Below are positions 1,142 to 55,123 of a DNA stretch of 55,123 nt, in pieces. Position 1 is the first letter of the stretch. Each line of letters starts with the position of its first letter. The notes under the pieces are model-generated. The model was not told where the DNA came from and searched no databases. It saw only the letters and a list, made by a program, of their open reading frames with translations. Both the position numbers and the translations under genes were made by a program. Location of the stretch: assembly GCA_039803205.1 (NCBI GenBank), contig JBDRYB010000011.1:1-55123 (forward strand). Direction: 5' to 3'. Source of the stretch: a candidate division WOR-3 bacterium. Its GTDB lineage: Bacteria; Hydrothermota; Hydrothermia; JBDRYB01.

Positions 1142-2323
1142 TCAGTCCTCCTTCAGTCCAGCGTAGTTCATGATCTCGGGTATCTCCTTCTTGCCAGCGG
1201 CCATATCCAGGAGGTCGTTGTAGACCCTCATGAAGTCCTCCGGGAAGATGTCCCTGCCGCCGAAGCCATAATAGTAAGACCTGAGGATGGGATGCTTATC
1301 GTGGTGGTAAAGCGCGCCTGCTATCTCCGAGAACATCGGCCCTCCGTGGTTCTTGAAGGAGTCCGCTCTCTCCATGATAGCGACGATCTTGTATTTTCCG
1401 AGGGCCTTCCTGAGGCGCTCAACCGGGAGTGGCCTCGGGACTCTGAGCTTTATGACCGCGACGCGCTTGCCCTCCTCGGCCATGAAGTCAACGGTCTCCT
1501 TTGCTGTTCCTGCCGCAGAACCTATTATGAGGACCGCGACCTCAGCATCGTGTGGGTCGTAGATCTCCATCCAGTCATACTCCCTTCCGAAGCGCTCCCC
1601 AAACTCCCTGTATGCCTGATCTATGAATCTAGGCGCTTCCATCATTCCCTCCGCGAGCTTGCGCCTGTGTTCCATATAGCTGTCCGGAAGGGAGAGGTGG
1701 CCGGCCATTATGGGATGATCCGTATCCAGAAGGTTATAGAGGGGTTTTCTCTCCCCAAGGTATTTCGCTATCTCGGCCTTGTCCAGGACATCAACAGGCT
1801 CAAGGGTATGCGAGAGTATGAAACCATCCTCGCAGACGAAAGCTGGTAAGTTTGAGAGCTCAGCGGCCCTCGTGGCTATGAAGATGTGATCGTAGAATTC
1901 TTGGACGCTCTCCCCGTAAAACTGAAGCCAGCCGGAGTCGCGGGAGCCCATTGTATCAGAGTGGTCGCCGTGGATGTTTAGCGGCGAGTTCAGGGCTCTG
2001 GATGCTATGACCGTGACTATGGGCAATCTCATGGACGAGGCTATGTATAACACCTCGTGCATCAGGGCGAGGCCTTGCGCGGCTGTCGCTGTCATAACCC
2101 TTGCTCCGCAAGCAGATGCGCCAATGCAAGCGCTCATCGCGGAGTGCTCCGATTCAACCGGGACGAACTCGGTCTGGCACTCGCCATTATTGACATAATC
2201 CGAGAAACGCTCAACAACCTGGGTTGATGGGGTTATGGGATAAGCCGCAACCACATCCGGATTTATCTGCATCATCGCGTATGCGGCGGCCTCGTTTCCG
2301 GTCATGGGTATCCTTGGCATCAC
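1142..2323 (-). CDS. porA: Pyruvate/2-oxoacid:ferredoxin oxidoreductase alpha subunit
   Basis: MTGNEAAA, AAYPITPST, ESEHSA and YGFGGRD motifs. Confidence 0.95.
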   Translation of the reverse strand: MMPRIPMTGNEAAAYAMMQINPDVVAAYPITPSTQVVERFSDYVNNGECQTEFVPVESEHSAMSACIGASACGARVMTATAAQGLALMHEVLYIASSMRLPIVTVIASRALNSPLNIHGDHSDTMGSRDSGWLQFYGESVQEFYDHIFIATRAAELSNLPAFVCEDGFILSHTLEPVDVLDKAEIAKYLGERKPLYNLLDTDHPIMAGHLSLPDSYMEHRRKLAEGMMEAPRFIDQAYREFGERFGREYDWMEIYDPHDAEVAVLIIGSAAGTAKETVDFMAEEGKRVAVIKLRVPRPLPVERLRKALGKYKIVAIMERADSFKNHGGPMFSEIAGALYHHDKHPILRSYYYGFGGRDIFPEDFMRVYNDLLDMAAGKKEIPEIMNYAGLKED

Positions 2324-2601
2324 TTCACCTCCTGAACTATGTCTATGGCCTTACATTTATCCGGGCACACCTCAGCGCATATGCCACAACCTTTGCAGTA
2401 GTCGTAGTCTATTCCGACCATCTTGTCTTCCTTCACGAGGATAGAGGAATCCGGACAATATAGCCAACAGAGAAGGCAGTGGTTGCACTTATCCTCGTGC
2501 CATACGGGCCTTCTGGTCCTCCAATTCCCCGTCTTTATTGCCCTGGATGTGCATGGTTCAGGGATAAAGGGCGCGGGTTCAAGCTCTTTCCAGCTCTTCA
2601 T
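2320..2601 (-). CDS. porD: Oxidoreductase delta subunit (2x[4Fe-4S])
   Basis: KTGNWRT..P followed by CxxCxxCxxxCP and YCKGCGICAEVCP. Confidence 0.93.
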   Translation of the reverse strand: MKSWKELEPAPFIPEPCTSRAIKTGNWRTRRPVWHEDKCNHCLLCWLYCPDSSILVKEDKMVGIDYDYCKGCGICAEVCPDKCKAIDIVQEVK

Positions 2602-3176
2602 ATCTCCTTCACCTCCTCGTATGCCCTTCTGAGAGCGGCAAGGTTCTCGTTCACGGTCTTCTCTCCCTTCAGTCTGAACCTAGCCGCGATTGCCTCCTCA
2701 AGGGCTTTCAGGGGCAGTAGATCCCCGAGAACCCTGGATACCGCGCCAACAATAGGGGTGTTTGGGATGTTCCTGCCGAATGAAGCGAGCGCTATTCCCG
2801 ATGCGTCAACCGAAAATAGCCTTCGGCCATCAATCTTTATCCTCTTTCTGAGCTCCTCACCCGGCAAAACGGAATTAACCAGGATGATGCCGTCCGGCAC
2901 GAGTCCTTCCAGGACATCTGGAGAATCAACGAAGCCTGAGTCAATGACCACGACCATGTCCGGTTCAGTGATGCCTGAGCGGACGCGTATGGTCTTGTCG
3001 GAAATGCGGTTGTAGGCCCTGACAGGCGCGCCCCGGCGCTCAGGCCCAAACTCAGGGATGGCTTGGACGAACTTGCCCTCCCTTACAAGGGCATCGGCCA
3101 CGAGAAGGGCAGCTGTGACGGTCCCCATGCCTCCGCGGCCGTGCCATCTTATCTCGTATAGTCCTTTGACCTTCAA
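2598..3176 (-). CDS. porC: Oxidoreductase gamma subunit; start moved to TTG at 3176
   Basis: EIRWHGRGGMG and FGPERRGAPV motifs; GAGGAGG Shine-Dalgarno upstream of the TTG. Confidence 0.93.
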   Translation of the reverse strand: MKVKGLYEIRWHGRGGMGTVTAALLVADALVREGKFVQAIPEFGPERRGAPVRAYNRISDKTIRVRSGITEPDMVVVIDSGFVDSPDVLEGLVPDGIILVNSVLPGEELRKRIKIDGRRLFSVDASGIALASFGRNIPNTPIVGAVSRVLGDLLPLKALEEAIAARFRLKGEKTVNENLAALRRAYEEVKEI

Positions 3177-3281
3177 GGCAGTTGCCTCCTCAAGAAGAAA
3201 GATCATATTATATGGCCAGAGCCCCATGAGAAACAAGCAAAATGGCAAAGAGGCCCGGATTTGCTTTATAATATTCCCCTC

Positions 3282-3354
3282 GCGGGAGTAACTCAGCTGG
3301 TAGAGTTCCAGCCTTCCAAGCTGGGTGTCGCGGGTTCAAATCCCGTCTCCCGCT
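3282..3354 (+). tRNA. tRNA-Gly(UCC), CCA not encoded
   Basis: Acceptor gcgggag/ctcccgc, anticodon arm ccagc-ct TCC aa-gctgg, T-loop ttcaaat; TATAAT upstream. Confidence 0.95.
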
Positions 3355-3357
3355 TTT

Positions 3358-3429
3358 TGCGGGGTCGTCTAATTGGCAGGACGGCAGACTCTGGATCTGC
3401 TAGTTGGGGTTCGAGTCCCTGCCCCGCAG
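3358..3429 (+). tRNA. tRNA-Gln(CUG), CCA not encoded
   Basis: Acceptor tgcgggg/ccccgca, anticodon arm gcaga-ct CTG ga-tctgc, T-loop ttcgagt. Confidence 0.95.
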
Positions 3430-3510
3430 TTCAGCTCCTTATCCGGCAATCGTTGGGGTTCGAGTCTCAGAATTTGGCTCTATTCCCCAGTCTTCCTTGG
3501 GAGTTATTAC

Positions 3511-5352
3511 CTACCTCGTCACCACAAGCTTCTGGGTCCTGGAAACCTCTCCCTCCTCAAGCCTCAGGAAATATGCGCCCGGCTCAGGCTCCCACGCAAC
3601 GGATTTGATCCCTTGGCTCCTGCCGGAGAAGAGGGTTGCGACGAGCCTACCCGTCGCGTCGTATGCCTTTAGGCTAGCGCTAGCCTTCCCGGAGAGCACA
3701 AACTCTACTTTGACCTTGCCCCTCACTGGGTTCTGGAAGGGTAGGAGAGCCGTGTTCGTTATGGCTTCGCACGGGTCCTCGCAGATATCGGCTCCTGCAC
3801 CGGCTATCATGTTGAAGCTGGATGTGTTATTGTAGCTTCCAGCGCTTATGCTAAGGAAGAAGGGAACCCTGTGGCCGAGCGGGCACGAAGCGTTCAGGGT
3901 AACCTGGTAGCTGGCGTTTGATGTTCCGGTTCCCTCGGAAGGCATGTCCGGATAAGAAGAGGCATTTTGGGTTATGGTTACATAGGGATCTGGGGATGAA
4001 AGGGTCGCTGATACGCCGGAAGCGGTTTGCCCGCCTGAGTTGATCAGGGTTATGGTGAACGAACTGGGCCCGTATGGAAGGCTGTCGCCTATGGAATTGG
4101 AGTAATATGTCAGTATGGGTTGATTCGGAAGGGAGGTGGAGCCGTTTATGAACCACCACCAGGATGAGTTTTTCGCCCAGCATAGGTTCCTCCACTCTGA
4201 GGACGGGGAGCTAGTTGGCGCATATATGGCTATGCCATGACTCCCAGAAACCGAACCCCAGCTGTCATCGTTGTCATACCAGAAAGAGCCTATAAGCGCG
4301 GTGTCGTTATATACAGACCCGTCTCCCTGAATATCAACCACAGCCTGGGCCGCGGCCCTCAGGTTAGCGGGGAGGGAGGGGGTCTTCGCTATGCTATCGG
4401 CAAAATCATATAGGTCCATCAGGTCAGAATCCGAGTAGCGCTGAGCGTTTTGGTAGCAAGCGTTTATCTGCGCCTGGTTCTTTCCTCCGGCCTTTATGAG
4501 CTCCCGCGAGAACCTATCAACCGCCAGATAATACCTGGTGAACCAGGGCCCCTGATCGACCGCTGAGTGGGTGATGTTTGACGAACCATCATACTGGGTT
4601 CCGCCTGGCTTGTAGCTTTCAACATATATGCTCGCGAAGTTGTGGCCGAGCTCCTGGGGCGAGGCGTTTGGGTGATCGTTCAGCCACTGCATCAGCGTCT
4701 CATATGGATACCCGTCCCACGGCTCTGTCTCCTCCGAGTGAACCGAGACATCGGTGAAATCCTTTACCTCGTATTCAACCTCAAGAAGCCCCATCAGACA
4801 AGCGTCGTAGGACAAAATGCTCAGATTCCTGTCCAGTATTCCAAATATTGAATCCGCGAGATACCTGAGCTCTCCCCCCGCGACAGAGATGTAATCGTTG
4901 TCCGTGTCGTCATAGGAAACCCCCTTGTCCGGGCCCCTCTTGTCCCAGCCTGATCCGTGGTTCCAGATTATGATCCAGTAGCAGTCCGTTTGGGAGAGAA
5001 GCCGCACGGTGTCCAGGAACCATATCACATTGTCCGGGTCCCCCATGTTCAGCTCTCCGCAGTCCTTGATGAGCTGGGAGTTTATCGTTGTCATATTAGC
5101 GTCAGGGAGAATCCTATAAAGCCTGGTTCCTTCCCAGTTTCCGTTTGAGTTGTCGTAGCCCGGAGTCCTATCAAACAGCACATAGACATTATACTTGGTG
5201 GTGTCTATCTCGCTCTCCATCTCGTTTATGTCGTCTATGCCGGCCTCCTCAAGGTTGTTGTCCCCGTTGAGGAAAACGCATACGGTCCACTTCTTTCCCT
5301 GGGCAAATGAGAGGCCCAAGAAAACAGCTATTCCTGCAATAACTCTAAACAT
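3511..5352 (-). CDS. Secreted clostripain-family (C11) cysteine peptidase with Ig-like domain and T9SS-like C-terminal domain
   Basis: Signal peptide; KKWT..F..DNNLE, LNMGDP, catalytic NHGSGW and DACLMG; C-terminal NPV...YDATGRLV...GAYFLRL...KLVVTR. Confidence 0.85.
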   Translation of the reverse strand: MFRVIAGIAVFLGLSFAQGKKWTVCVFLNGDNNLEEAGIDDINEMESEIDTTKYNVYVLFDRTPGYDNSNGNWEGTRLYRILPDANMTTINSQLIKDCGELNMGDPDNVIWFLDTVRLLSQTDCYWIIIWNHGSGWDKRGPDKGVSYDDTDNDYISVAGGELRYLADSIFGILDRNLSILSYDACLMGLLEVEYEVKDFTDVSVHSEETEPWDGYPYETLMQWLNDHPNASPQELGHNFASIYVESYKPGGTQYDGSSNITHSAVDQGPWFTRYYLAVDRFSRELIKAGGKNQAQINACYQNAQRYSDSDLMDLYDFADSIAKTPSLPANLRAAAQAVVDIQGDGSVYNDTALIGSFWYDNDDSWGSVSGSHGIAIYAPTSSPSSEWRNLCWAKNSSWWWFINGSTSLPNQPILTYYSNSIGDSLPYGPSSFTITLINSGGQTASGVSATLSSPDPYVTITQNASSYPDMPSEGTGTSNASYQVTLNASCPLGHRVPFFLSISAGSYNNTSSFNMIAGAGADICEDPCEAITNTALLPFQNPVRGKVKVEFVLSGKASASLKAYDATGRLVATLFSGRSQGIKSVAWEPEPGAYFLRLEEGEVSRTQKLVVTR

Positions 5353-5460
5353 GCATGCCTCCTAAGAAGCAAATTATAAGGCCCAGGCCAGGGAGCTTCA
5401 AGGAGTGATGCGCCGCGCCTTTGTGCTTTAAAATATGGCCAAACCTGGAGGTTCGCCAAG

Positions 5461-5712
5461 ATGAGATTGCAGAAATGGTTTAGGGATAACGCGCTGGGGA
5501 TACTCTCCCAGGTGGTAGTCGCAGGCTTGGTCGTTTGGGCCACTATAAGCACCCTTTTCTGGATCGGTGAGCGCTCGGCCCGTCAGAACCTTGAGGATCA
5601 GATACGCAGGGGCTCTTTCCCCGCGTCCGGCAGAAACCTTTACGCCCGGGCCCAGTATGGCTCAGGTTCATCCCTTAAGGACATAAAGGGCGCGATGAAG
5701 ATTAAACCATGA
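5461..5712 (+). CDS. Small single-TM hypothetical protein
   Basis: GGAGG upstream, one hydrophobic segment, ATGA overlap with der. Confidence 0.5.
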   Translation: MRLQKWFRDNALGILSQVVVAGLVVWATISTLFWIGERSARQNLEDQIRRGSFPASGRNLYARAQYGSGSSLKDIKGAMKIKP

Positions 5713-6968
5713 AGCTTCCCCTCGTCGTTATCGTGGGCCGGGTCAACACGGGGAAAAGCACGCTTTTCAATAGGATCCTCGGAAAGCCGCTTGCCATAAC
5801 TGACGAGAGGCCCGGCGTCACCAGGGACGCCATCAAGAAGCCAGCCCAACACAACGGCGCTGGTTTTCTCATTGCGGATACGGGGGGGTTCATGGGTGAG
5901 GAAAACCCCAAGCTCTGGCCAGAGATAAAAAGGCGCATAGAGTCAATTGTAAAAGAGGCTGATGTGGTCGTTTTCCTCACGGACGCGAAGGATGGGCTTC
6001 TGCCCCTTGACCGGGAGATAGCCGCCTGGCTCAGGAAAACCGCCAGGGTCGTTCTTCTCGCCGCGAACAAGTGCGATTCCCGAAGATCTGCCCCTGAGGA
6101 GTTCTACGCGCTGGGTTTTGAGGTTTTCCCGATATCAGCCATAACTGGCTTGGGTGTTGATGAGCTCCTTGACCGTATAGCGGGAATAATCGGCCGTGTC
6201 CCCCCGTTGCCGCAGAGGACGGACCTCATAAGGATAAGCATAATAGGGAAGCCAAATGTCGGAAAGAGCTCGCTTTTGAACGCGCTAGTGGGCAGGGATG
6301 AGGCAGTTGTCTCAGAGTCACCTGGGACAACGAGAGACCCAGTTGAGGCCGTTGCCGGAGACCTCCTTGTGCTTGACACCGCTGGCATAAAAAGGAGATT
6401 CGCGGACGATCTTGAGTATTATTCATATCTAAGATCGCTGAGGAGCCTCCGCTACTCCGAGATATGCCTCGTGGTTCTGGATTCCTCCCAGCCAATAACC
6501 GCCATAGACAAGAAGATAGCCAGTCTCGCTGTTAAGGAGGGCCGGGGTGTTATCCTCTGTATCAACAAGATTGATTTGATCCCAAAGGGGCGGAGGGCAA
6601 AGCTTCTTGAGGAGATAAGGGGGTTCATGGGCTTCCTCTATTGGGCGCCAGCGATCCCCATATCAGCCCTTACTTGTGAGGGAATGGACGAGATACCCAT
6701 CAGCGTCAGGGGCATTCACCGAGAGTTCCACAAGCAGGTTGGCCAGGAAGCCCTTTATGAGCTTTTGGTTGAGGCAACGGGAAAGCTCTCCCCAGGAACC
6801 ATGCTCTTCTCCTTAAAACAGCTCAGGAGCGCGCCCCCGGTCTTTCTCCTCAGAGCAGATATGAAGCCGAGGGCAGAATATCTCTCTTTCCTTGAGAGGG
6901 AGATTAGGGCGAGGTTTGGGTTCTCGGGGGTTCCGATAAGGATAGAGGTTTCAATCCCCCGCGGCTGA
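5709..6968 (+). CDS. der: Ribosome biogenesis GTPase Der (EngA)
   Basis: Two G domains (GRVNTGKS/DTGG/NKCD and GKPNVGKS/DTAG/NKID) plus KH-like tail FGFSGVPI. Confidence 0.93.
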   Translation: MKLPLVVIVGRVNTGKSTLFNRILGKPLAITDERPGVTRDAIKKPAQHNGAGFLIADTGGFMGEENPKLWPEIKRRIESIVKEADVVVFLTDAKDGLLPLDREIAAWLRKTARVVLLAANKCDSRRSAPEEFYALGFEVFPISAITGLGVDELLDRIAGIIGRVPPLPQRTDLIRISIIGKPNVGKSSLLNALVGRDEAVVSESPGTTRDPVEAVAGDLLVLDTAGIKRRFADDLEYYSYLRSLRSLRYSEICLVVLDSSQPITAIDKKIASLAVKEGRGVILCINKIDLIPKGRRAKLLEEIRGFMGFLYWAPAIPISALTCEGMDEIPISVRGIHREFHKQVGQEALYELLVEATGKLSPGTMLFSLKQLRSAPPVFLLRADMKPRAEYLSFLEREIRARFGFSGVPIRIEVSIPRG

Positions 6969-6977
6969 GCGCGATAC

Positions 6978-7007
6978 TTGGCACAGCGCTGAGCCATGCT
7001 TTATAAT
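6978..7007 (+). promoter_or_regulatory. Sigma70-type promoter of rplT-pheS-pheT
   Basis: TTGGCA-18 nt-TATAAT, then AGGAGG before the rplT ATG. Confidence 0.55.
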
Positions 7008-47005: not shown

Positions 47006-47548
47006 TTGAGAAGGTTCTGTCTTTTGGTGCTTTGCCTTTGCTGTGACTGGTTTGGCCTCAGAGAACCCAAACCACCTGCCGGGCCCCCATACTGGGAACA
47101 GCCAACAACCCCCGATGCAGTGCTGTTTAACCTTCAAAACTCCCTGAATTTCCAGCTTCCTGATAACTATGTTTCGTGCCTGAACGAGTTTTTCTTATTC
47201 GCGCCCGATCCATCCTTACAGGGCTCCCAATATGAAAACTGGAACAAGAGGACTGAGGACACGATAATAAGAAACATGATGGCGCAGCTGGACCTCGGCC
47301 AGCCAACCCCAATAAACGCATCATTCACGGTGATTGACGAGTGGGAGGATGGTCCATCATCATATTATTACAACATCTCGTATGACATAACAGTTTATCT
47401 CTCTGGCGGGAACATATACCGGGCAAAGGGAACCAGCAAGCTCAACCTCGTGAAAAACCCGGACACGAGGCTCTGGGACATCCTCACTTGGGAGGACTTC
47501 AAGACAGACTCTGTTTCCTGGGCAGAACTAAAGGTAATCTTCAGATGA
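47006..47548 (+). CDS. Hypothetical lipoprotein
   Basis: Short hydrophobic leader with Cys residues; P.TP..VL.N motif; ATGA overlap with the next gene. Confidence 0.65.
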   Translation: MRRFCLLVLCLCCDWFGLREPKPPAGPPYWEQPTTPDAVLFNLQNSLNFQLPDNYVSCLNEFFLFAPDPSLQGSQYENWNKRTEDTIIRNMMAQLDLGQPTPINASFTVIDEWEDGPSSYYYNISYDITVYLSGGNIYRAKGTSKLNLVKNPDTRLWDILTWEDFKTDSVSWAELKVIFR

Positions 47549-48159
47549 TAACAGGCATCCTCACCATGAGCGCGGAACTGCTCGCAGGGGCAGGGCCTTC
47601 AGCCCCGGCGGGGAGGATGATCTACCAGAGCTGCTACGGCGAGATAGACTACGGATACACCGCTTGGTTCAATTTCTTCTTTCAATTGTCATACCTGAAG
47701 GGATTCCCAATCGGACTTGAACCCTATTTCAGGATAAGCCACACGGATCACAACCAGCGCTTCTCTGAGACAACATACATGGGTATGCCAATAGGCTCAA
47801 AGATAAACGAGTCCGTCGTCTCATACGAGCTCGGGGCATCGCGCGGGGTTTTCAACTGGTCAAAGATATATTTAGTGGCCGGCGCGGCCATCACTGGGAA
47901 CTTCGGCCACCTTGAATGGGAGTCTTATGGCTCTGAGGCCGCACTCAAGGATACGGTTATAAACCGTGCGACCCCTGGGCTACTTGGGCTTGCGAGGCTT
48001 GAGTTCAGGGAGAACCGGAGGGAATATCTGAGCGACAGGACCGTAACCCTGGTAATAGGCTCATCGGGGCGTGTGAACTACATGTGGCTGAGCCAAGATG
48101 ACTGGCCATTCCAGAAATGGTTCGCAACTTTGGATATCTATGTAGGGGTGAGGTGGTGA
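47545..48159 (+). CDS. Hypothetical small outer-membrane beta-barrel protein
   Basis: Amphipathic beta-strand pattern; C-terminal YVGVRW resembles a beta-signal. Confidence 0.55.
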   Translation: MITGILTMSAELLAGAGPSAPAGRMIYQSCYGEIDYGYTAWFNFFFQLSYLKGFPIGLEPYFRISHTDHNQRFSETTYMGMPIGSKINESVVSYELGASRGVFNWSKIYLVAGAAITGNFGHLEWESYGSEAALKDTVINRATPGLLGLARLEFRENRREYLSDRTVTLVIGSSGRVNYMWLSQDDWPFQKWFATLDIYVGVRW

Positions 48160-48206
48160 GTCAGGAGGCAAGGGTGCGAAACCCCAGAAACAAGATGAGA
48201 TAAAAA

Positions 48207-48290
48207 CGGAGGGTGAGGGATTTGAACCCCCATGGGCTTTCGCCCGGCTGATTTCAAATCAGCTGCCTTACCTGGTTAGGCTAACCCTCC
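48207..48290 (-). tRNA. tRNA-Ser(UGA), CCA not encoded
   Basis: Minus strand: acceptor ggagggt/accctcc plus G, anticodon arm gctga-tt TGA aa-tcagc, long variable arm gggc-gaaa-gccc, T-loop ttcaaat. Confidence 0.95.
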
Positions 48291-49310
48291 GGCGAGGATT
48301 TTCTGTTTTTCGCTTTTCTTGAACTGACCATAATTCCCTTGTCCCGAACCCTCTCTGTGTGGTCCTGAGCCCAGGAGCTCCGCAAGGGTCCGAAGGTCAA
48401 CCCCATCCATAACCTTCCAGCTCGCGTATGTGTGTCTGAGATCGTGAAAGCGAAAGTCGCGGATTCCTGCTTCACGGCAAGCCTTTCTGAAAGCTTTCTC
48501 GGGATAGCGCATCCTCAGAGCCATATTATCATCCCCGCGTGGTAACTGGATCAACAGCTTCCTGAGATCATCGTGCAGGGGGATGAGCCGCGCTGAACCT
48601 GTCTTGCTCTCTCTGACTCGTATTATCCCCCTCTCCAGGTCCACATCTTCCCATCTGAGCGCCCTTATCTCCCCTATTCTCATTCCAGTGTATAGAGCTA
48701 TTGCCACGAAAGCAAAAAGCCAGAGATTATTCCGGCAGGCATTTAAGAGAGCTTGAGCCTCATCAGGACTGAGGTAGCGAATTCTGCCGGCAGGTTCTCT
48801 GAGAGGACGAATACCCTTAAGGGGACTGGCTTCCAGGATTCCCCATTCCACTGCCCTGTTAAAGACCGAACGGATAAAGGCATAATATCGGTTGACCGTG
48901 GAGGGCGAGTGCGAAAGCGCGAGGCACTGAAGGGTTTCAAGCACCCTTTCTGTTCTCAGTTGGGAGAGGGGCAAATCACCCAGGGCCTCAAGAAAGAAAG
49001 CCGCGTAGAATACTTCAGAACGCAAATAGGATTTTGAATGCGCGGTTTTTGCCCACTCCAAATACCGAGCAAATAGCTCTGAAAGGGTTATTATTGCCCC
49101 GGCCCTCTTCTCAGGCATGACCCCAAGCCTCGCGAGGTGCTTCTCGTGCCTGAGCTTGTTGAGAAAAGCCTCCGCGTCGGCCCTCTCAGGGAACTGTCTC
49201 CTAACCCTCCGGCCCCAGGCATCATAAGCATCAACCTGGTAGGATATGGCCCCGCTCTCAAGGGTTATCCTGCGAATCCTGCCGCGGCCACGGGGCATAG
49301 TAAGGCTCAT
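48276..49310 (-). pseudogene. Tyrosine integrase lacking the box II His and the catalytic Tyr (start ATG 49310 or 49298)
   Basis: TGMRIGE, SKTG and HDLRH are present; the sequence diverges right after LAELLG. Confidence 0.8.
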
Positions 49311-49467
49311 ATTATAATGCCTGCGGGACAACTGGAGAATACACGCGGATAATTCGCATGGCGCCTCGTTTTCCGAACTTGCGCGCGCAAGATTATCAAT
49401 CGTAGTGGGGGTTTGAGGGCAAAATTTTGAGGTGGGGAGCCCCATACAAAATACTTTGCGCCTCAGA

Positions 49468-49867
49468 ATGAAGTTCCTAACACCCGGCCCAGGTTGCCGA
49501 AGAGCTCCAGTGCTCCTTGGACCATGTCTATGACCTAATAAGGGCCGGGGTTATTCCTGCCAGGGACATATCCAGGCCAGGAGCAAGGAGAAGGACCTAC
49601 AGGATACCAGCCAGCGCGCTTGAATCCTTACCCCTATTTAATCCTCCAGGAACCAGGGGCCTCAGGGAGCCTCCTCCGAGCTGGAGATACGGGGGCATGG
49701 CCGAGTTCAACAGGATAGTCGCGGAGATAAAGGCCGAGGCCCGGAAAGCCCGGAGGGAGAGGTTTTCGGGCCGGGGGGATATTAAGATACCCCATGGGGG
49801 CAAAAAGGCGCGTCCTGAGCAAATCCCGACCCCGGCTCGCACTATTACCGGAGGGGAGGAGCTATGA
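49468..49867 (+). pseudogene. Excisionase-like HTH gene, copy 1, +1 frameshift at the C run 49488-49490
   Basis: MKFLTPG then, after removing one C, QVAEELQCSLDHVYDLIRAG.IPA...YRIP; 400 nt, 399 once corrected. Confidence 0.75.
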
Positions 49868-51138
49868 GCGTATCCGCGCGAGACAATCGCAAAAGCGATC
49901 CCCTCTGGGCACGAGGGTTCACCAGGCTCTTTGACATCATAATTGAGAACACGGCCCGGCTCGGCCTCACTTCCCACCAAATAAGGATGATCCTGGTTCT
50001 CAACCTTCTGGCCTTCCGGGGCCAGCGCACCACATACCGCAAGATAGGTGAACTCACGGGAACAACCCCGGACGGGGCCAGGAAAATGGTCAAGAAAATG
50101 GCGGGCCTGGGCTGGATCAGGGTGGATAACGCGGACCCCAAGGACAGGATAAGCCTCAAGCCATACGAGGAGCGCGCGGTCGCATTAGCTAACCAGGTAG
50201 GCCCCAGGCGTCAAAAGGAACCCGAAAATTACGATGTAGAGTTTGTCTGGACAGCCGGGACCCTCCACTTCACCAGGCTCCCGGCCCTTCTCTTTGAGCA
50301 CCCGGATATTGCCCTGAGCGCCACCGAATTGCACTTAATATTGGTTATCTCATACTTCACTTATGGGTTTGCCACGAGGATACGCTTTGGCCAAATAATT
50401 CACACGAGCATAGCGGAGATAGCCGAGCTCATGGGTGTTCGGCCCAGGAGCGTGTCCAGAATCCTGAGGCGCCTGGAGGCCAGGGGATATTTGATCAGAA
50501 CAACCCAGCCGGGCCAGGCCCTCAGCTTTGACCTTTCTCCCCTGTTTGACCGCCTCCGTGAGACAGAAAGGGCGCTCTCGGAGGTTCAAGATATTGCAAG
50601 CCAATACAACCTGGAAATTCTCAGGGAGCTATTGCCCCAGACCCAGTTTGCCGAGGTGCCAGAAGAGGTTATCACGAGCCTGATAAAGCAGTATGGCGCT
50701 GGGCGCGTGGCTATGGTTGTGGACATCCTTAGCCTCCAATACAGGAACAGGAGGATACTGAACCCAGCCCGGCTCCTCAAGAGCATGCTGGCAAGGGGCA
50801 TAGAGCCGGACGAGGGGTTTATACCCTGGCCCATAAGGGAGGCCCAGAGGAGGCAAGCGGAACAGGAAGAGGCCCGGAGAAAGCAAATAGAGGCCTTGCG
50901 CCGAGAACTGGAAGAATACGCTAAAAACGCTTGGAGAAACGCTTCCCCCGTGGAACGAGAACCATATATTTGTGAGGCGCAGGAATTCATCCAGTCTACG
51001 GGGTTAAACATTCCCCTGGAAAACCTGGCAATATCCCTTTACACCGAGGCCATAGCCTTTGACCGATTATGCAACGAGAGGGGAACGCCGCCGGAACGGA
51101 GGGAGAAACTGCGGAAACTCCTGTTTGGAGGAGCATGA
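49864..51138 (+). CDS. Putative replication initiator with two DnaD-N-like winged-helix domains
   Basis: Duplicated W..G..FTRL...L motif, each followed by an HTH (YRKIGELTG; IAEIAELMGV..RSVSRILRRLEARGYL); helical C-domain with NPARLL. Confidence 0.65.
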   Translation: MSVSARDNRKSDPLWARGFTRLFDIIIENTARLGLTSHQIRMILVLNLLAFRGQRTTYRKIGELTGTTPDGARKMVKKMAGLGWIRVDNADPKDRISLKPYEERAVALANQVGPRRQKEPENYDVEFVWTAGTLHFTRLPALLFEHPDIALSATELHLILVISYFTYGFATRIRFGQIIHTSIAEIAELMGVRPRSVSRILRRLEARGYLIRTTQPGQALSFDLSPLFDRLRETERALSEVQDIASQYNLEILRELLPQTQFAEVPEEVITSLIKQYGAGRVAMVVDILSLQYRNRRILNPARLLKSMLARGIEPDEGFIPWPIREAQRRQAEQEEARRKQIEALRRELEEYAKNAWRNASPVEREPYICEAQEFIQSTGLNIPLENLAISLYTEAIAFDRLCNERGTPPERREKLRKLLFGGA

Positions 51139-51700: not shown

Positions 51701-51812
51701 CCAATTGCGGGCCCGGAAATGATCAAACGGTTCAGGTAATTCAGTCGTGGCGCGGTTTTCGGGGCGAAATTTGGTCGCACGGAACCATATACGAGATACT
51801 TTGCACCTCGCT

Positions 51813-51950
51813 ATGAAGTTCCTAACACCCGGCCAGGCCGCCGAGGAGCTCCAGTGCTCCTTTGACCATGTCTATGACCTAATCAGGGCCGGGGTTATTC
51901 CTGCCAGGGATATAGAGAAGGACATACAGGATACCAGCTAGCGCGCTTGA
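51813..51950 (+). pseudogene. Excisionase-like HTH gene, copy 2, 17-nt deletion causing a frameshift
   Basis: Near-identical to 49468-49623 but lacks tccaggccaggagcaag; stop at 51941. Confidence 0.75.
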
Positions 51951-52264
51951 GGCCTTCCCAAATAACAGGGGAATAAATTAGCATGGTCCAGAGCCGTATG
52001 CGCGGGTTCCCGGTCCCTGCCGGGGCTGGCTGATTCCGGCTTTCGCTCACAGATTGTCTTTTATACGGTGCTCGGAAATCATTATGTCCTCTCCCTGTCT
52101 CGCATAAACACAGGGCCTTTTGCCACACGAGGCCCTTCCTACGGCCCAAGTTTGGCCATTTTCGGCCGTCAAGCGAGTGCTAAGTCCTTACCGGATAAGA
52201 ACTACAGAATAGCTGTCTCTGAATCCCTCATAAAACAAGCGTTTCCGCGACTTGACACCCATAG

Positions 52265-52293
52265 TTGCAATAGGTTCACCCCCCTCTTATAAT
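52265..52293 (+). promoter_or_regulatory. Sigma70-type promoter of the downstream secreted-protein cluster
   Basis: TTGCAA-17 nt-TATAAT; GGAGG before ATG 52326. Confidence 0.6.
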
Positions 52294-52325
52294 GCTCAGG
52301 CTGAGCAAGCTGGAGGCTTAAAAAT

Positions 52326-54144
52326 ATGTTTTGGCTGATGCTCATAGGAGCCTACGAGGTGGTCCTGCCGGAGGGCGGGGAGGAGGTGGTTGATCTCGTA
52401 ATTGAGAACCAAACGGACACCCTGCTCAAGGAGCCTTGGATATTCGTGTTCTCAAAGCCTGATTGGCTCTCGGTTAGTCCGGACAGCGTGATAACCCATA
52501 ACCTTGCCAAGGGGGAGAAGGTTGAGCTTCGGCTAAAGCTCAGAAGCAAACCCTCTTGGTTCCTGGGCCTCCGCGAGGGCGAGCTAAGACTCAGGTTCCT
52601 GGTCAGGAACGGAGAGGTGGCCCCGGACTTCGCCGAATTCAAGGTTAAGGAAGAACCCTATGAGGTTGCTTCTCTGGTTCCCTGGTTGTTGGCGAGGGAA
52701 TACACCTTCACGCATACCTTGACTGAGCACTACGATTATTATCCGATAATATTTTTGCATGGGATGAACGCGACTGCAAAAAGCTGGCTCCAGCCTAAAT
52801 GGCAGGACCAGTTTGATGATAGCACAGCCTTAGAAAAGTTAATAGATTCGCACTATCAATATTACGAGGCCGGTGAGCCCCTTTTGCTCTACCCAGGTGA
52901 TGAACCGAGTATTATTAATCGAATTCAGGCGGGAGAAATTTATGTAAAAAGAGCTATTTATAGCTGTGGATATTATTTTAAGTCTTATACACCGGGCGGG
53001 AGAAATTTATGTAAAAAGAGCTATTTATAGCTGTGGATATTATTTTAAGTCTTATACACCGGGAGACAACGAGATACAGGGGGTAATTGGATCCAATGGA
53101 GTTTATTGGCCCAGTAATCAATATTCCTGTGTAGAGTACAGGGATAACCAAAGACACGGTGAGTATGCTCAGCGGATTGTTTCATTAATAAATGCTATCT
53201 GTGAAGCTACATATTCAGATAAAGTTAATGTAGTAGCCCACAGTATGGGTGGATATGTTCTGAGGGCCGCAATCAAATATTACAATTGTGATAAGCTGAA
53301 TCGGATCCTAATGCTTGCGACACCGAATAACGGGTGTCATTATAGCACTTACCAAGAAATTCTGACTTATCTATTCATAATTCCTGATTGGATGGATGCA
53401 GGGGAGGCAGCGGAACTCGGCATAGGAGAACCATACCCAGTAGCTTTTTGGGTTGGGTCAGGGGGTTGTGAGGGGGATGTTGAAGAAGGTATGCCCTGGT
53501 ATGATTTATTGAATCAGGGGGGTTGGCCAAAGTATGAAGAAAAGTATTCTGTAATAGCTGGAGATTTAGGAAGACTTGTGATTGCTGGCATTCCAGTTGG
53601 ACCTGCTGATGGAGTAGTAGATGTATGGTGGGTTCATTGGGGTCCAGCTAGATTTAATGTTACACATCGTTCTTCTCATAGTTCAGATCCGGAAGGTCCA
53701 TTCAGTTATAAACGAGTCGGCGAACTATCTTTGATTGCTAGCGAATTTAGTACTGAGTATATAAAGACTTGGATAATAGATGGGAAAGAAGATAGGACCG
53801 GGGAACCTGAGATAAGGGAGGATCAAGTAATTCTTCCACAAGTATGGCATGTCTATCAAGAAGATCTAAAATTGAGAGTAACAGGGGGAACAATAGATGA
53901 ATTTCTAAGTATTCAAATAGTATTAGAAAAATATGGTACAGCGTGGGCATATAGTGGTATTGACGCTTATTGGGGAGTATCTTATCGGGATGGGAAGGAG
54001 GTAAGTCCAGGTAGTTACGAATTTGTTGTTGCCAAAAGAGGTTCCTTTCAAACAAATACTCCATTTACCTATAATGTTCATGTGGTGTTTTACAGTCTCA
54101 ATAACCGTAAGGAGATTATAAAATCTATGACCGTAGCACCTTAG
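52326..54144 (+). pseudogene. Secreted alpha/beta-hydrolase (lipase-like) with a novel N-terminal domain, frameshifted by a 67-bp duplication (583 aa if one copy is removed)
   Basis: PIIFLHGM, nucleophile VVAHSMGG, LATPNNG, ADGVV and SH motifs spread over ORFs 52326-53030 and 52966-54144. Confidence 0.8.
52930..53063 (+). repeat. Exact 67-bp tandem duplication
   Basis: cgggagaaatttatg...tatacaccggg at 52930 and again at 52997. Confidence 0.95.
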
Positions 54145-54155
54145 GAGGTAAAAAT

Positions 54156-54746
54156 ATGCTTACTGTTTTACTCATAAGTTTCACACAAATTGGAGGAGGT
54201 GTAGAGGGCTCATTGTTTGTCATTTCAGGTTCAGGTAGTGCTTTCCTGACTTCAAAATTCTCCCAGACCCCCTCAAAGTATTTCCAGATAGACGCTGGAT
54301 ATACCAGACATTATACGGCGAGTGCTTTTGTGCCGGGTTCTGATTACTCAGCACAGGGAGGTATGTTCAAAATTACCCATCACTGGCAACAACTTGGTTC
54401 CTGGTGTGGTTGTGTTTTTAGTGGCAGGCGGGGATTTTACATTGGATTTGAGTCCGCGGTGCTCTATGGAGGTCGAGCCGGCTTAGATGAAAAAAACGAA
54501 TACCTGCTGTTGGCAGGAAATGCTGGTATCACAGCACCCTTGTGCGTGCGTCATTGGATCTCTGATACCCTACAAACGGTGGATATAAAGGATTTTGGGG
54601 AGTTTTTTCTTGAGATCAGCGTCGGGAATGTTGACGAGCATTTCACGCTCACCTCTATCGGTTTGGGTTTTAACCTCTGGCTTTTCAAATGGGGCTCAGA
54701 ACTCCCTAACCAAGACCAAGAAAAACACAAGGAGGATCAGCAATGA
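54156..54746 (+). CDS. AT-rich exported hypothetical protein (immunity or beta-barrel partner candidate)
   Basis: AGGAGG upstream, hydrophobic leader, beta-strand-rich sequence; starts 11 nt after the lipase stop. Confidence 0.7.
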   Translation: MLTVLLISFTQIGGGVEGSLFVISGSGSAFLTSKFSQTPSKYFQIDAGYTRHYTASAFVPGSDYSAQGGMFKITHHWQQLGSWCGCVFSGRRGFYIGFESAVLYGGRAGLDEKNEYLLLAGNAGITAPLCVRHWISDTLQTVDIKDFGEFFLEISVGNVDEHFTLTSIGLGFNLWLFKWGSELPNQDQEKHKEDQQ

Positions 54747-55123
54747 GAAGGTTTTCCGTGCTTCTCGTTCTAGCTGGCGGCCTGTGGGCCAACGGCCAGC
54801 ATGTGGTCTATATGTGCCCAGGCGAGGAGGTGACGATAAACCTTATCCTTGAGAACCCTAAAAGCATCGGCGATCCTTACCCCGGAGACATGAAGGATGT
54901 TTACCTTCAATTCTGGCGAAAGGATGGAGATTGGCTCATCGGCGGTGAGGAAGACATCTGGGTAGGAACCATACCTAATGGTGGAAGCAGTGACCCCATT
55001 CAGATCGTTATCAGCTCGGACATCAATGAACCATACGAGCCAGGAAAGCAGGCCTGGTTGTATTACCGGGTCATGATCAGCAATGGGGAGGTTGTTCCGA
55101 GATGGGTCGCTTTCCAGGTCCTT
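54743..55123 (+). CDS. Secreted protein truncated by the window edge and absent from the ORF track; N-terminal domain resembles that of the 52326 protein
   Basis: AAGGAGG then ATG 54743; 127 open codons, MRRFSVLLVLAGGLWANGQHVVYMCPGEEVTINLILEN...DWL...LYYRVMISNGEVVPRWVAFQVL. Confidence 0.8.
   Translation, partial: MRRFSVLLVLAGGLWANGQHVVYMCPGEEVTINLILENPKSIGDPYPGDMKDVYLQFWRKDGDWLIGGEEDIWVGTIPNGGSSDPIQIVISSDINEPYEPGKQAWLYYRVMISNGEVVPRWVAFQVL

Follow-up and report, generated by a model that had tools for sequence, protein, structure and literature searches.

The contig JBDRYB010000011.1 of a candidate division WOR-3 bacterium (assembly GCA_039803205.1) carries at its right-hand end three genes, here named A, C and D, whose sequences and predicted structures suggest a polymorphic lipase toxin linked to the T9SS (type IX secretion system) and guarded by a β-barrel immunity protein, split at this locus into a lipase and its carrier. 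We put the probability of this reading at slightly under 0.6. A, which has a lipase fold, would target lipids in the envelope of rival cells; the producer would be protected by C, the barrel encoded next to A; and D, which bears a T9SS tag, would carry or display the lipase, with the tail-less A hitch-hiking on D for export. For a lipase delivered to the surface, the target would lie at the outer membrane, and there the loops of the barrel could block the enzyme.

Gene layout

The window, by which we mean the whole stretch analysed, is the entire contig (C11; 55,123 nt). Its gene order is A (in two frames), C and D, all on the + strand, with D open to the window end at 55123. The features of the three genes are as follows.

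52326..53030, + strand: 5′ piece of A, with the N-terminal domain (N-domain), a conserved linker and the start of the lipase domain (PIIFLHG); from the open reading frame list and the family alignment
52326..52658, + strand: short hydrophobic leader of A and a ~100-residue NEW3/CARDB-like Ig (immunoglobulin) domain, G+C content 0.555; from profiles, and 96% identical with the paralogue on contig C13
52928..53063, + strand: exact 67-bp tandem duplication that frameshifts A; from the sequence, with unitig breaks at the borders in runs X1 and X2
52966..54144, + strand: 3′ piece of A, with the remainder of the α/β-hydrolase (Ser in AHSMG at 53236–53250, Asp, His) and a hypervariable β-rich C-terminal domain at ~53779–54141; from Pfam Lipase_2 (E=1.4e-7), the invariant triad and a paralogue model
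54156..54746, + strand: C, a hypervariable predicted eight-stranded outer-membrane β-barrel and candidate immunity protein; from structure matches
54743..55123, + strand: 5′ end of D, with signal peptide and N-domain; from an in-frame overlap with contig C25 and relatives with the same junction

These coordinates of the A pieces, AHSMG, C and D reproduce the layout given in an earlier sequence-only reading of the window (hereafter the original prediction), which had also described the three genes as tightly coupled behind one promoter. An 11-nt gap between A and C and an ATGA overlap of the C stop with the D start bear out the coupling; a promoter-like site is present, although it is weak by itself (six TTGCAA-17-TATAAT-type sites found by scan compared with 4.9 expected).

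A is a lipase-type protein with a conserved N-terminus and a variable remainder

The two A frames are one gene split by the 67-bp duplication. Unitigs from two public runs, the best of which is possibly the source sample, end precisely at the two edges of the repeat (52957 and 53034), and the duplication is therefore probably present in the reads; an assembly error is a less likely source, and the population may also contain an unduplicated allele. The A proteins consist of a leader, the N-domain, the linker, a lipase A-like hydrolase and the β-rich C-terminal domain, and an intact paralogue lies on contig C13 of the same genome (C13:42617–44395; 592 residues), its N-domain 96% and its lipase region 39% identical with those of window A. 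A model of this paralogue superimposed on Bacillus subtilis lipase A with Z 18.3 (range 18.3–18.8) and a root-mean-square deviation of 2.8 over 170 aligned residues, BlEst2 and PhaZ7 were also among the fold neighbours, and the triad S284, D418 and H441 was invariant in 9/9 A lipases. On this modelling, the lipase domain is assigned to a Family I.4-like α/β-hydrolase fold with a Ser-Asp-His triad, and A would be lipolytic.

Median identity among 11 A proteins was 77% for the N-domain and 79% for the linker, compared with 41% for the lipase and 24% for the C-terminal domain. Conservation drops abruptly at the first lipase strand and the G+C content falls at the same point, from 0.555 in the N-domain to 0.415 in the lipase and 0.378 in the C-terminal domain (C, 0.459; genome, 0.534).

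C is a predicted outer-membrane barrel that follows A

Structure matches of C (~190 residues) in the Atlas were to OMP_b-brl (template-modelling score 0.60–0.68), and VIA-align superimposed its model on the OprF barrel (Z 10.2, root-mean-square deviation 3.3, 130 aligned residues), with OmpW (Z 8.7) and AlkL (Z 6.9) also matched. The model is of modest confidence (pLDDT, the predicted local-distance difference test, 55); Foldseek gave no match for it at E≤0.001, and a Pfam scan of C gave none. The structure matches, a signal peptide and amphipathic strands predict an eight-stranded outer-membrane barrel of the OmpA/OprF type. Complex prediction for C and the 3′ lipase piece of the window scored 0.00, with the fold of the partner uncertain, which speaks neither for nor against binding.

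The nine members of the C family share only 19–30% identity. A barrel gene nevertheless follows A in 8/8 loci that reach past the A stop (the window, C13, G002, L011, L012, L015 twice and L016), which upholds the claim of an adjacent partner gene. L015 is a tandem array, A1-C1-A2-C2-D′, and two further C genes stand behind an insertion sequence with A lost or a remnant (L013 and L016). The closest lipase pair in the genus (64%) also has the closest C pair (41%). A scan of the genome's contigs returned one weak, unrelated locus.

D is a candidate type IX substrate

Through a 14-bp in-frame end overlap, D continues on contig C25 for 1247 further residues, which comprise FN3 domains, BNR-like repeats and a T9SS type A tail (PF18962, E=1.2e-8). 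The C11–C25 junction rests on this overlap and on relatives with the same junction (P0010 and P0019); read depth indicates at least two copies of the D 5′ end, one of them joined to a different C, so that C25 may continue either the window copy or another. Judged by its signal peptide, its C-terminal type A domain and the T9SS genes of the genome (SprA and PorV over the cut-off, 64 matches to the T9SS C-terminal sorting domain), D qualifies as a T9SS type A substrate. Reading past 55123, as had been proposed, thus showed that D does go on: it is an FN3/propeller protein that ends in a T9SS tail and lacks a toxin tip. Next on C25 is a restriction–modification gene on the other strand, and a toxin-tipped effector role for D was ruled out by the tail, the opposite orientation of this gene and the lack of a downstream partner.

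No T9SS C-terminal sorting domain was matched on the window piece of A or on the intact C13 paralogue, so the export of A would depend on D or on some other route. The FN3/propeller part of D has relatives in the genus only, in two of the 272 genomes of our phylum sample, so that the survey of other tips on the D-type carrier covered the genus alone.

The shared N-domain is probably an Ig module

The original prediction was built on an N-terminal domain shared by A and D, taken as a possible new export or anchoring domain. Pairwise BLASTP of the two window N-domains gave only E=2e-4 with 9/25 identities. Profile–profile comparison of eight A-type with six D-type N-domains aligned 98 columns at an HH probability of 97.6% (E=3.5e-12), and in natural chimeras the RNGEV motif is the point at which a D-type N-domain passes into an A lipase (P0009/L015 and L016). 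The shared domain is therefore real. Its proposed role was not upheld. A profile of nine N-domains had 204 matches at E≤1e-3 among 1.84 billion representatives; those outside the direct family were multi-repeat proteins. Repeats of NEW3, CARDB or a related Ig-type family were present in each of the 20 long ones that were scanned, and Atlas features likewise point to the NEW3/CARDB Ig type. A Pfam scan of the N-domain found no family over the cut-off (best, PG_0320-like_C, E=5e-4), and its model is all-β with pLDDT ~50, the fold-match lists being filled by the lipase part. By sequence profile, then, the N-domain appears to be a lineage-specific NEW3/CARDB-type Ig module. It resembles NEW3 (NPCBM_assoc, PF10633) and CARDB (PF07705) in that its remote profile matches are repeats of both families, and differs from them in being used singly at the N-terminus, in its lineage-specific RNGEVxP motif and in having no direct Pfam match over the cut-off.

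The N-domain occurs in 4/272 genomes compared with 37/272 for the lipase family, which rules out a widespread trafficking domain. Since it appears to be an Ig module and is of such narrow spread, it is not the export signal of the system, a part that would fall to the C-terminal T9SS type A domain on D; it is likely to be a recombination handle. Tabulating C-termini and neighbours, a further check that had been proposed, also gave a mixed outcome: the Ig match and the tips (lipases in 9/9 on the A type, FN3/propellers on the D type) went against the original claim, and the adjacent partner genes were found. In G021 and G004, N-domain–FN3 genes have barrel-like and lipoprotein neighbours, which ties the parts seen in the genus to the wider phylum system.

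Barrel–lipase cassettes in the phylum

The lipase profile matched in 37/272 genomes (five weakly). Outside the genus, the lipase usually adjoins the signal peptide and forms the N-terminal tip of ~800–2700-residue proteins ending in T9SS or FlgD-type tails; matches outside the locus study were six weak ones (E>1e-12) and the stand-alone lipases of G240 and G241. Ser serves as the nucleophile in 14 of 17 full phylum lipases and Cys in three; Asp is present in 17/17 and His is aligned in 15. Family members with Cys at the catalytic Ser position (AHCMG) include L062:7790, L076:2–2707 and L049:1477.

In the 66 loci examined, a barrel-profile match lies ≤700 bp upstream of 29/46 lipase matches; two lipases are at contig starts and 15 have no such match. 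In six of these 15 the upstream gene ends barrel-like and in three, from one genus, it is a GNVGIGT-repeat gene, the remainder being five stand-alone 350-residue lipases and one fragment. Neighbours of lipase genes were the source of the profile; 17/20 were recovered in a leave-one-out analysis, and all 28 matches among 183 open reading frames lay inside arrays. The upstream proteins are predicted to be barrels from their strand pattern and two weak Pfam matches, and their profile had no matches to PDB sequences. Cys-Cys or CxC motifs (GCC, CGC and SCC) occur in many barrels of both this family and the C family (alignments A4 and A8). In L063, L029 and L030 (G232, G238 and G236), a GNVGIGT-repeat, coiled-coil-ended gene replaces the barrel before the lipase–T9SS gene; similar genes are found beside Rhs loci of Bacteroidota. 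Upstream of the barrel–lipase pair of L062 (G224), 1777–6998 holds two genes with identical C-terminal ends, one of them with M10 peptidase, FN3 and CBM domains.

Several loci are arrays. That of G052 reads barrel, 151-residue stub, barrel, 155-residue stub, barrel and a 1982-residue gene; that of G054 reads barrel, 782 residues, barrel, 408+322 residues, barrel and at least 883 residues, both upstream copies stopping at the same point of the carrier. Four stub–barrel fusions precede the full gene in G103 and one does so in G106. Barrel and lipase of a cassette travel together, and their rank differs between genomes (G054a/G052c, barrel 0.88 and lipase 0.77; G054c/G052b, 0.86 and 0.95; G103b/G106b, 0.79 and 0.84); a pair found full-length in one genome is present as a displaced one in another. 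A new cassette may be captured by a single crossover in conserved carrier DNA; the previous barrel would then stay intact and the previous lipase would be left upstream in truncated form, the pattern seen in the arrays. Recombination in conserved DNA, namely the N-domain/linker, the D 5′ end and the promoter-leader, would likewise account for cassette exchange. Because the T9SS signal is C-terminal, the layout is reversed in most WOR-3 genomes, with an N-terminal lipase tip and with the barrel and the displaced cassettes upstream. In the genus of the window, the lipase would instead have been split from its carrier, both halves starting with a NEW3-like Ig domain and the barrel standing between them. 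We extend this tentatively, at somewhat worse than even odds, to a phylum-wide mirror-image toxin system of N-terminal lipase tips on T9SS substrates, barrel-plus-tip cassettes and hoarded outer-membrane barrel immunity, with A hitch-hiking on D through the shared Ig domain.

Barrels also occur without lipases. Of 66 barrel matches, 29 precede a lipase, seven another barrel and seven the locus end, and 23 neither (one of the 23 with a short lipase stub); barrels are borne by 28/272 genomes, 11 of which lack a lipase match. Five barrel pairs gave dN/dS (ratio of non-synonymous to synonymous substitution rates) values of 0.15–0.45, indicating purifying selection. The immunity reading, if true, would explain a family of orphan barrels without a Pfam match in 28/272 genomes.

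These orphans bear directly on whether the barrel could be a dedicated shuttle or surface anchor that binds the variable C-terminal domain or tip of the lipase, as PorP/SprF does for type B substrates. Cognate, adjacent and co-varying barrels are described for such substrates (PMC12618676), A itself is tail-less and its C-terminal domain is hypervariable (24%), and one of 20 phylum barrels matches PorP_SprF (PF11751) weakly (E=0.004). A shuttle, however, would be useless without cargo, and the barrels remain intact behind 100–155-residue lipase stubs and as orphans under purifying selection; moreover, the tails of the phylum lipases are of type A or FlgD type and work with PorV, a component that is present. 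C, at ~190 residues, matches eight-stranded barrels; PorP and SprF are larger. PF11751 had no match on C itself, and a PorP/SprF class for the barrels was rejected on this ground, on the single weak match among the phylum barrels and on the type A or FlgD-type tails of the proteins beside the latter. Since the barrels are kept without lipases, a shield fits better than a shuttle, which we consider unlikely.

Kin recognition would likewise be consistent with the cognate co-variation and the sets of barrels. The barrel would then be the receptor, or a non-targeted variant of the receptor, of a lipase-tipped protein on the cell surface, which is the relation of OmpR/OmpS to BSAP-1. The gene next to that for BSAP-1 encodes a barrel orthologous to the BSAP-1 target but resistant (PMC4999547). 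BSAP resistance, however, consists in the replacement of one essential gene, whereas here several unrelated-looking barrels occur per genome (up to ten matches in G103) and none in most genomes, and the catalytic triad is largely kept in the 17 full lipases. We regard this explanation as less probable still.

Least probable of the three, and in our view a poor prospect, is a nutrient module, in which a surface lipase or polyester hydrolase would free fatty acids for import by a barrel resembling OmpW/AlkL, diversity reflecting substrates or phage pressure. The fold neighbours of the lipase (lipase A, BlEst2 and PhaZ7) and of C (OmpW and AlkL) suit such a role, and FN3, BNR and Ig domains are ordinary on surface enzymes. 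It does not account for why barrels only 20% identical to one another each travel with a particular lipase tip, one to one, nor for the stub arrays, low G+C content, patchy spread (37/272) and nearby mobile genes.

Several observations weigh against the toxin–immunity reading that we prefer. C shows no detectable homology with the upstream phylum barrels (HH probability 0.7 and 1.8), the barrel profile has no match in G000, the genome of the window, or in G002, and C lies on the opposite side of the lipase, so that linking the two barrel families rests on the shared lipase family and layout. The co-travel of barrels and lipases (Mantel r 0.48, p=2e-4, 24 cassettes) is not corrected for kinship, and within the genus the identity of C proteins does not follow that of the lipases (rho 0.23, p=0.32, 21 pairs; several of the alignments failed). 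A lacks a T9SS tail that would account for its export. Intact orphan barrels could reflect an independent function, and the stand-alone 350-residue lipases, all from one genus (L045–L049, constant synteny), have a divergent barrel-ending neighbour on the opposite strand. Tips behind barrels are all lipases, the sole exception being a peptidase-like T9SS protein at G106:C10, and several unrelated tip folds on one trafficking domain were not found. Finally, the immunity proteins listed in section 30 of PMC12419801 are lipoproteins and transmembrane proteins, a β-barrel not being named there.

The promoter repeat and the neighbouring mobile element

Further features lie upstream of A.

48276..49445, − strand: tyrosine integrase (PF00589, E=3.9e-27) adjoining tRNA-Ser (48206–48291)
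49517..49867 and 49864..51138, + strand: excisionase-like helix–turn–helix gene (label by sequence pattern) and Rep-like winged-helix–turn–helix gene; from open reading frames and Pfam
52088..52388, + strand: repeated promoter region and first 21 codons of A; from blastn copies elsewhere in the genome
52265..52293, + strand: promoter-like site TTGCAA-17-TATAAT; from the motif scan, and kept in 4/5 repeat copies

The promoter-leader stretch recurs at four further sites in the genome, each ahead of a start codon (blastn: C31, 99%; C13, 87% and 90%; C20, 83%), and the promoter is better supported for this reason. Read contigs of the repeat had a depth of 175–220 compared with 34 nearby (run X1). 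In three other copies in the genome the A leader runs directly into a different exported gene, and D repeatedly ends soon after its FN3 domain; behind it a fresh promoter leads into A, or into a 21-codon A leader with a different exported gene (C13, L013, L015 and L017). The exported genes after the shortened D are propeller lipoproteins or a barrel-like protein. Unrelated exported genes headed by the A promoter and a 21–24-codon A leader are found at G000:C13:47217–47413, C31:2634–2334, C20:28068–28167, L013:267 and L015:~5650; they encode Ycf48-like or TolB-like propeller lipoproteins and one barrel-like protein, several beginning MK[KR]ER.KR. Genes captured in this way are possibly a second tier of protective genes. 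An abundant repeat just upstream of the C13 A promoter (G000:C13:41975–42327), also seen at many contig breaks, is probably an insertion-sequence end.

The original prediction had placed the three genes beside a tRNA-linked integrative element. Integrase, xis-like and Rep-like genes and tRNA-Ser are all present, and a search for an att duplicate of tRNA-Ser found none, so that the genes lie beside the element and a position inside it does not follow. The xis-like region has a 78% copy at 51741–51959, and xis-like genes also stand upstream of A in L011 and L012. Beyond D and the restriction–modification gene is a tRNA-Arg(TCT) (G000:C25:19040–19115), whose 3′ 39 bp are duplicated at C2:116506–116544, near a 96% copy of the 3′ end of the window integrase (C2:114356–114518); the element may be tied to tRNA-Arg instead of tRNA-Ser. 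Left of tRNA-Ser, 47006–48159 of the window contains two small exported genes, lipoprotein-like and barrel-like, without a Pfam match. Most of the 30 kb of G000:C23 is of low G+C content (~0.42) with phage-like structural genes.

Comparison with known systems

If the toxin–immunity reading is true, bacteria other than Bacteroidota use type IX secretion to fight their competitors, a C-terminal export signal allows polymorphic toxin arrays to be built in reverse, and small outer-membrane barrels join the immunity proteins. Intact lipase–barrel pairs and natural non-cognate controls exist, making the reading directly testable. Even under the shuttle or the receptor reading, we found no description in the open-access literature of one-to-one lipase–barrel pairing in swappable cassettes.

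Polymorphic toxin systems are defined in section 29 of PMC12419801 by C-terminal tips of many folds and by orphan modules. The present loci share with them a conserved part joined to a variable enzymatic one (77–79% compared with 41% and 24%; lipase tips on T9SS-tailed carriers), an adjacent, cognate and hypervariable partner, and orphan cassettes and partner genes. To that extent the original claim of a polymorphic effector system stands; the range of enzymatic tips does not, only lipases being found, and the tip is N-terminal on the phylum carriers and followed by a further domain in A.

The TANFOR toxins of Bacteroidota, as described in PMC7073777, are tail-less proteins with a signal peptide, a conserved N-domain, a variable downstream partner and T9SS-substrate neighbours, for which T9SS export was proposed; the tail-less, leader-bearing A with its conserved N-domain, variable partner and neighbouring T9SS substrate resembles them in each respect. 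They differ in having C-terminal tips of many folds, mostly nucleases, and tested immunity proteins (PMC7073777). Here, by contrast, we see one lipase family, a predicted outer-membrane barrel partner, a common Ig module as N-domain and a tip that is mostly N-terminal on a T9SS protein.

CDI (contact-dependent inhibition), Rhs and MafB loci consist of one full-length gene and displaced cassettes of tip fragment and intact partner. Displaced cassettes of this kind, low G+C content and signs of exchange at conserved DNA recur here in mirror image, with the tip N-terminal, the partner and orphans upstream, the trafficking signal C-terminal and a barrel in place of a small soluble partner. The Tle lipases of the T6SS (type VI secretion system) have Tli immunity proteins that are periplasmic or lipoproteins, and A and C recall them in the α/β-hydrolase with its GxSxG-type nucleophile elbow, the extracytoplasmic partner and the tandem partner paralogues. 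Unlike a Tle, A carries a Sec-type leader and its Tle3 match was sub-threshold (E=0.009); a T6SS Tle effector was ruled out by this hydrophobic leader and by a VipB search that found no match in the 96%-complete genome. In type B substrates the secreted protein is linked to its own PorP/SprF barrel (PMC12618676), whereas here the tails are of type A, the barrels are smaller and they are kept without cargo. Thus the present system, which is polymorphic-like but has neither C-terminal tips nor many folds, is set apart from TANFOR, Tle and PorP/SprF.

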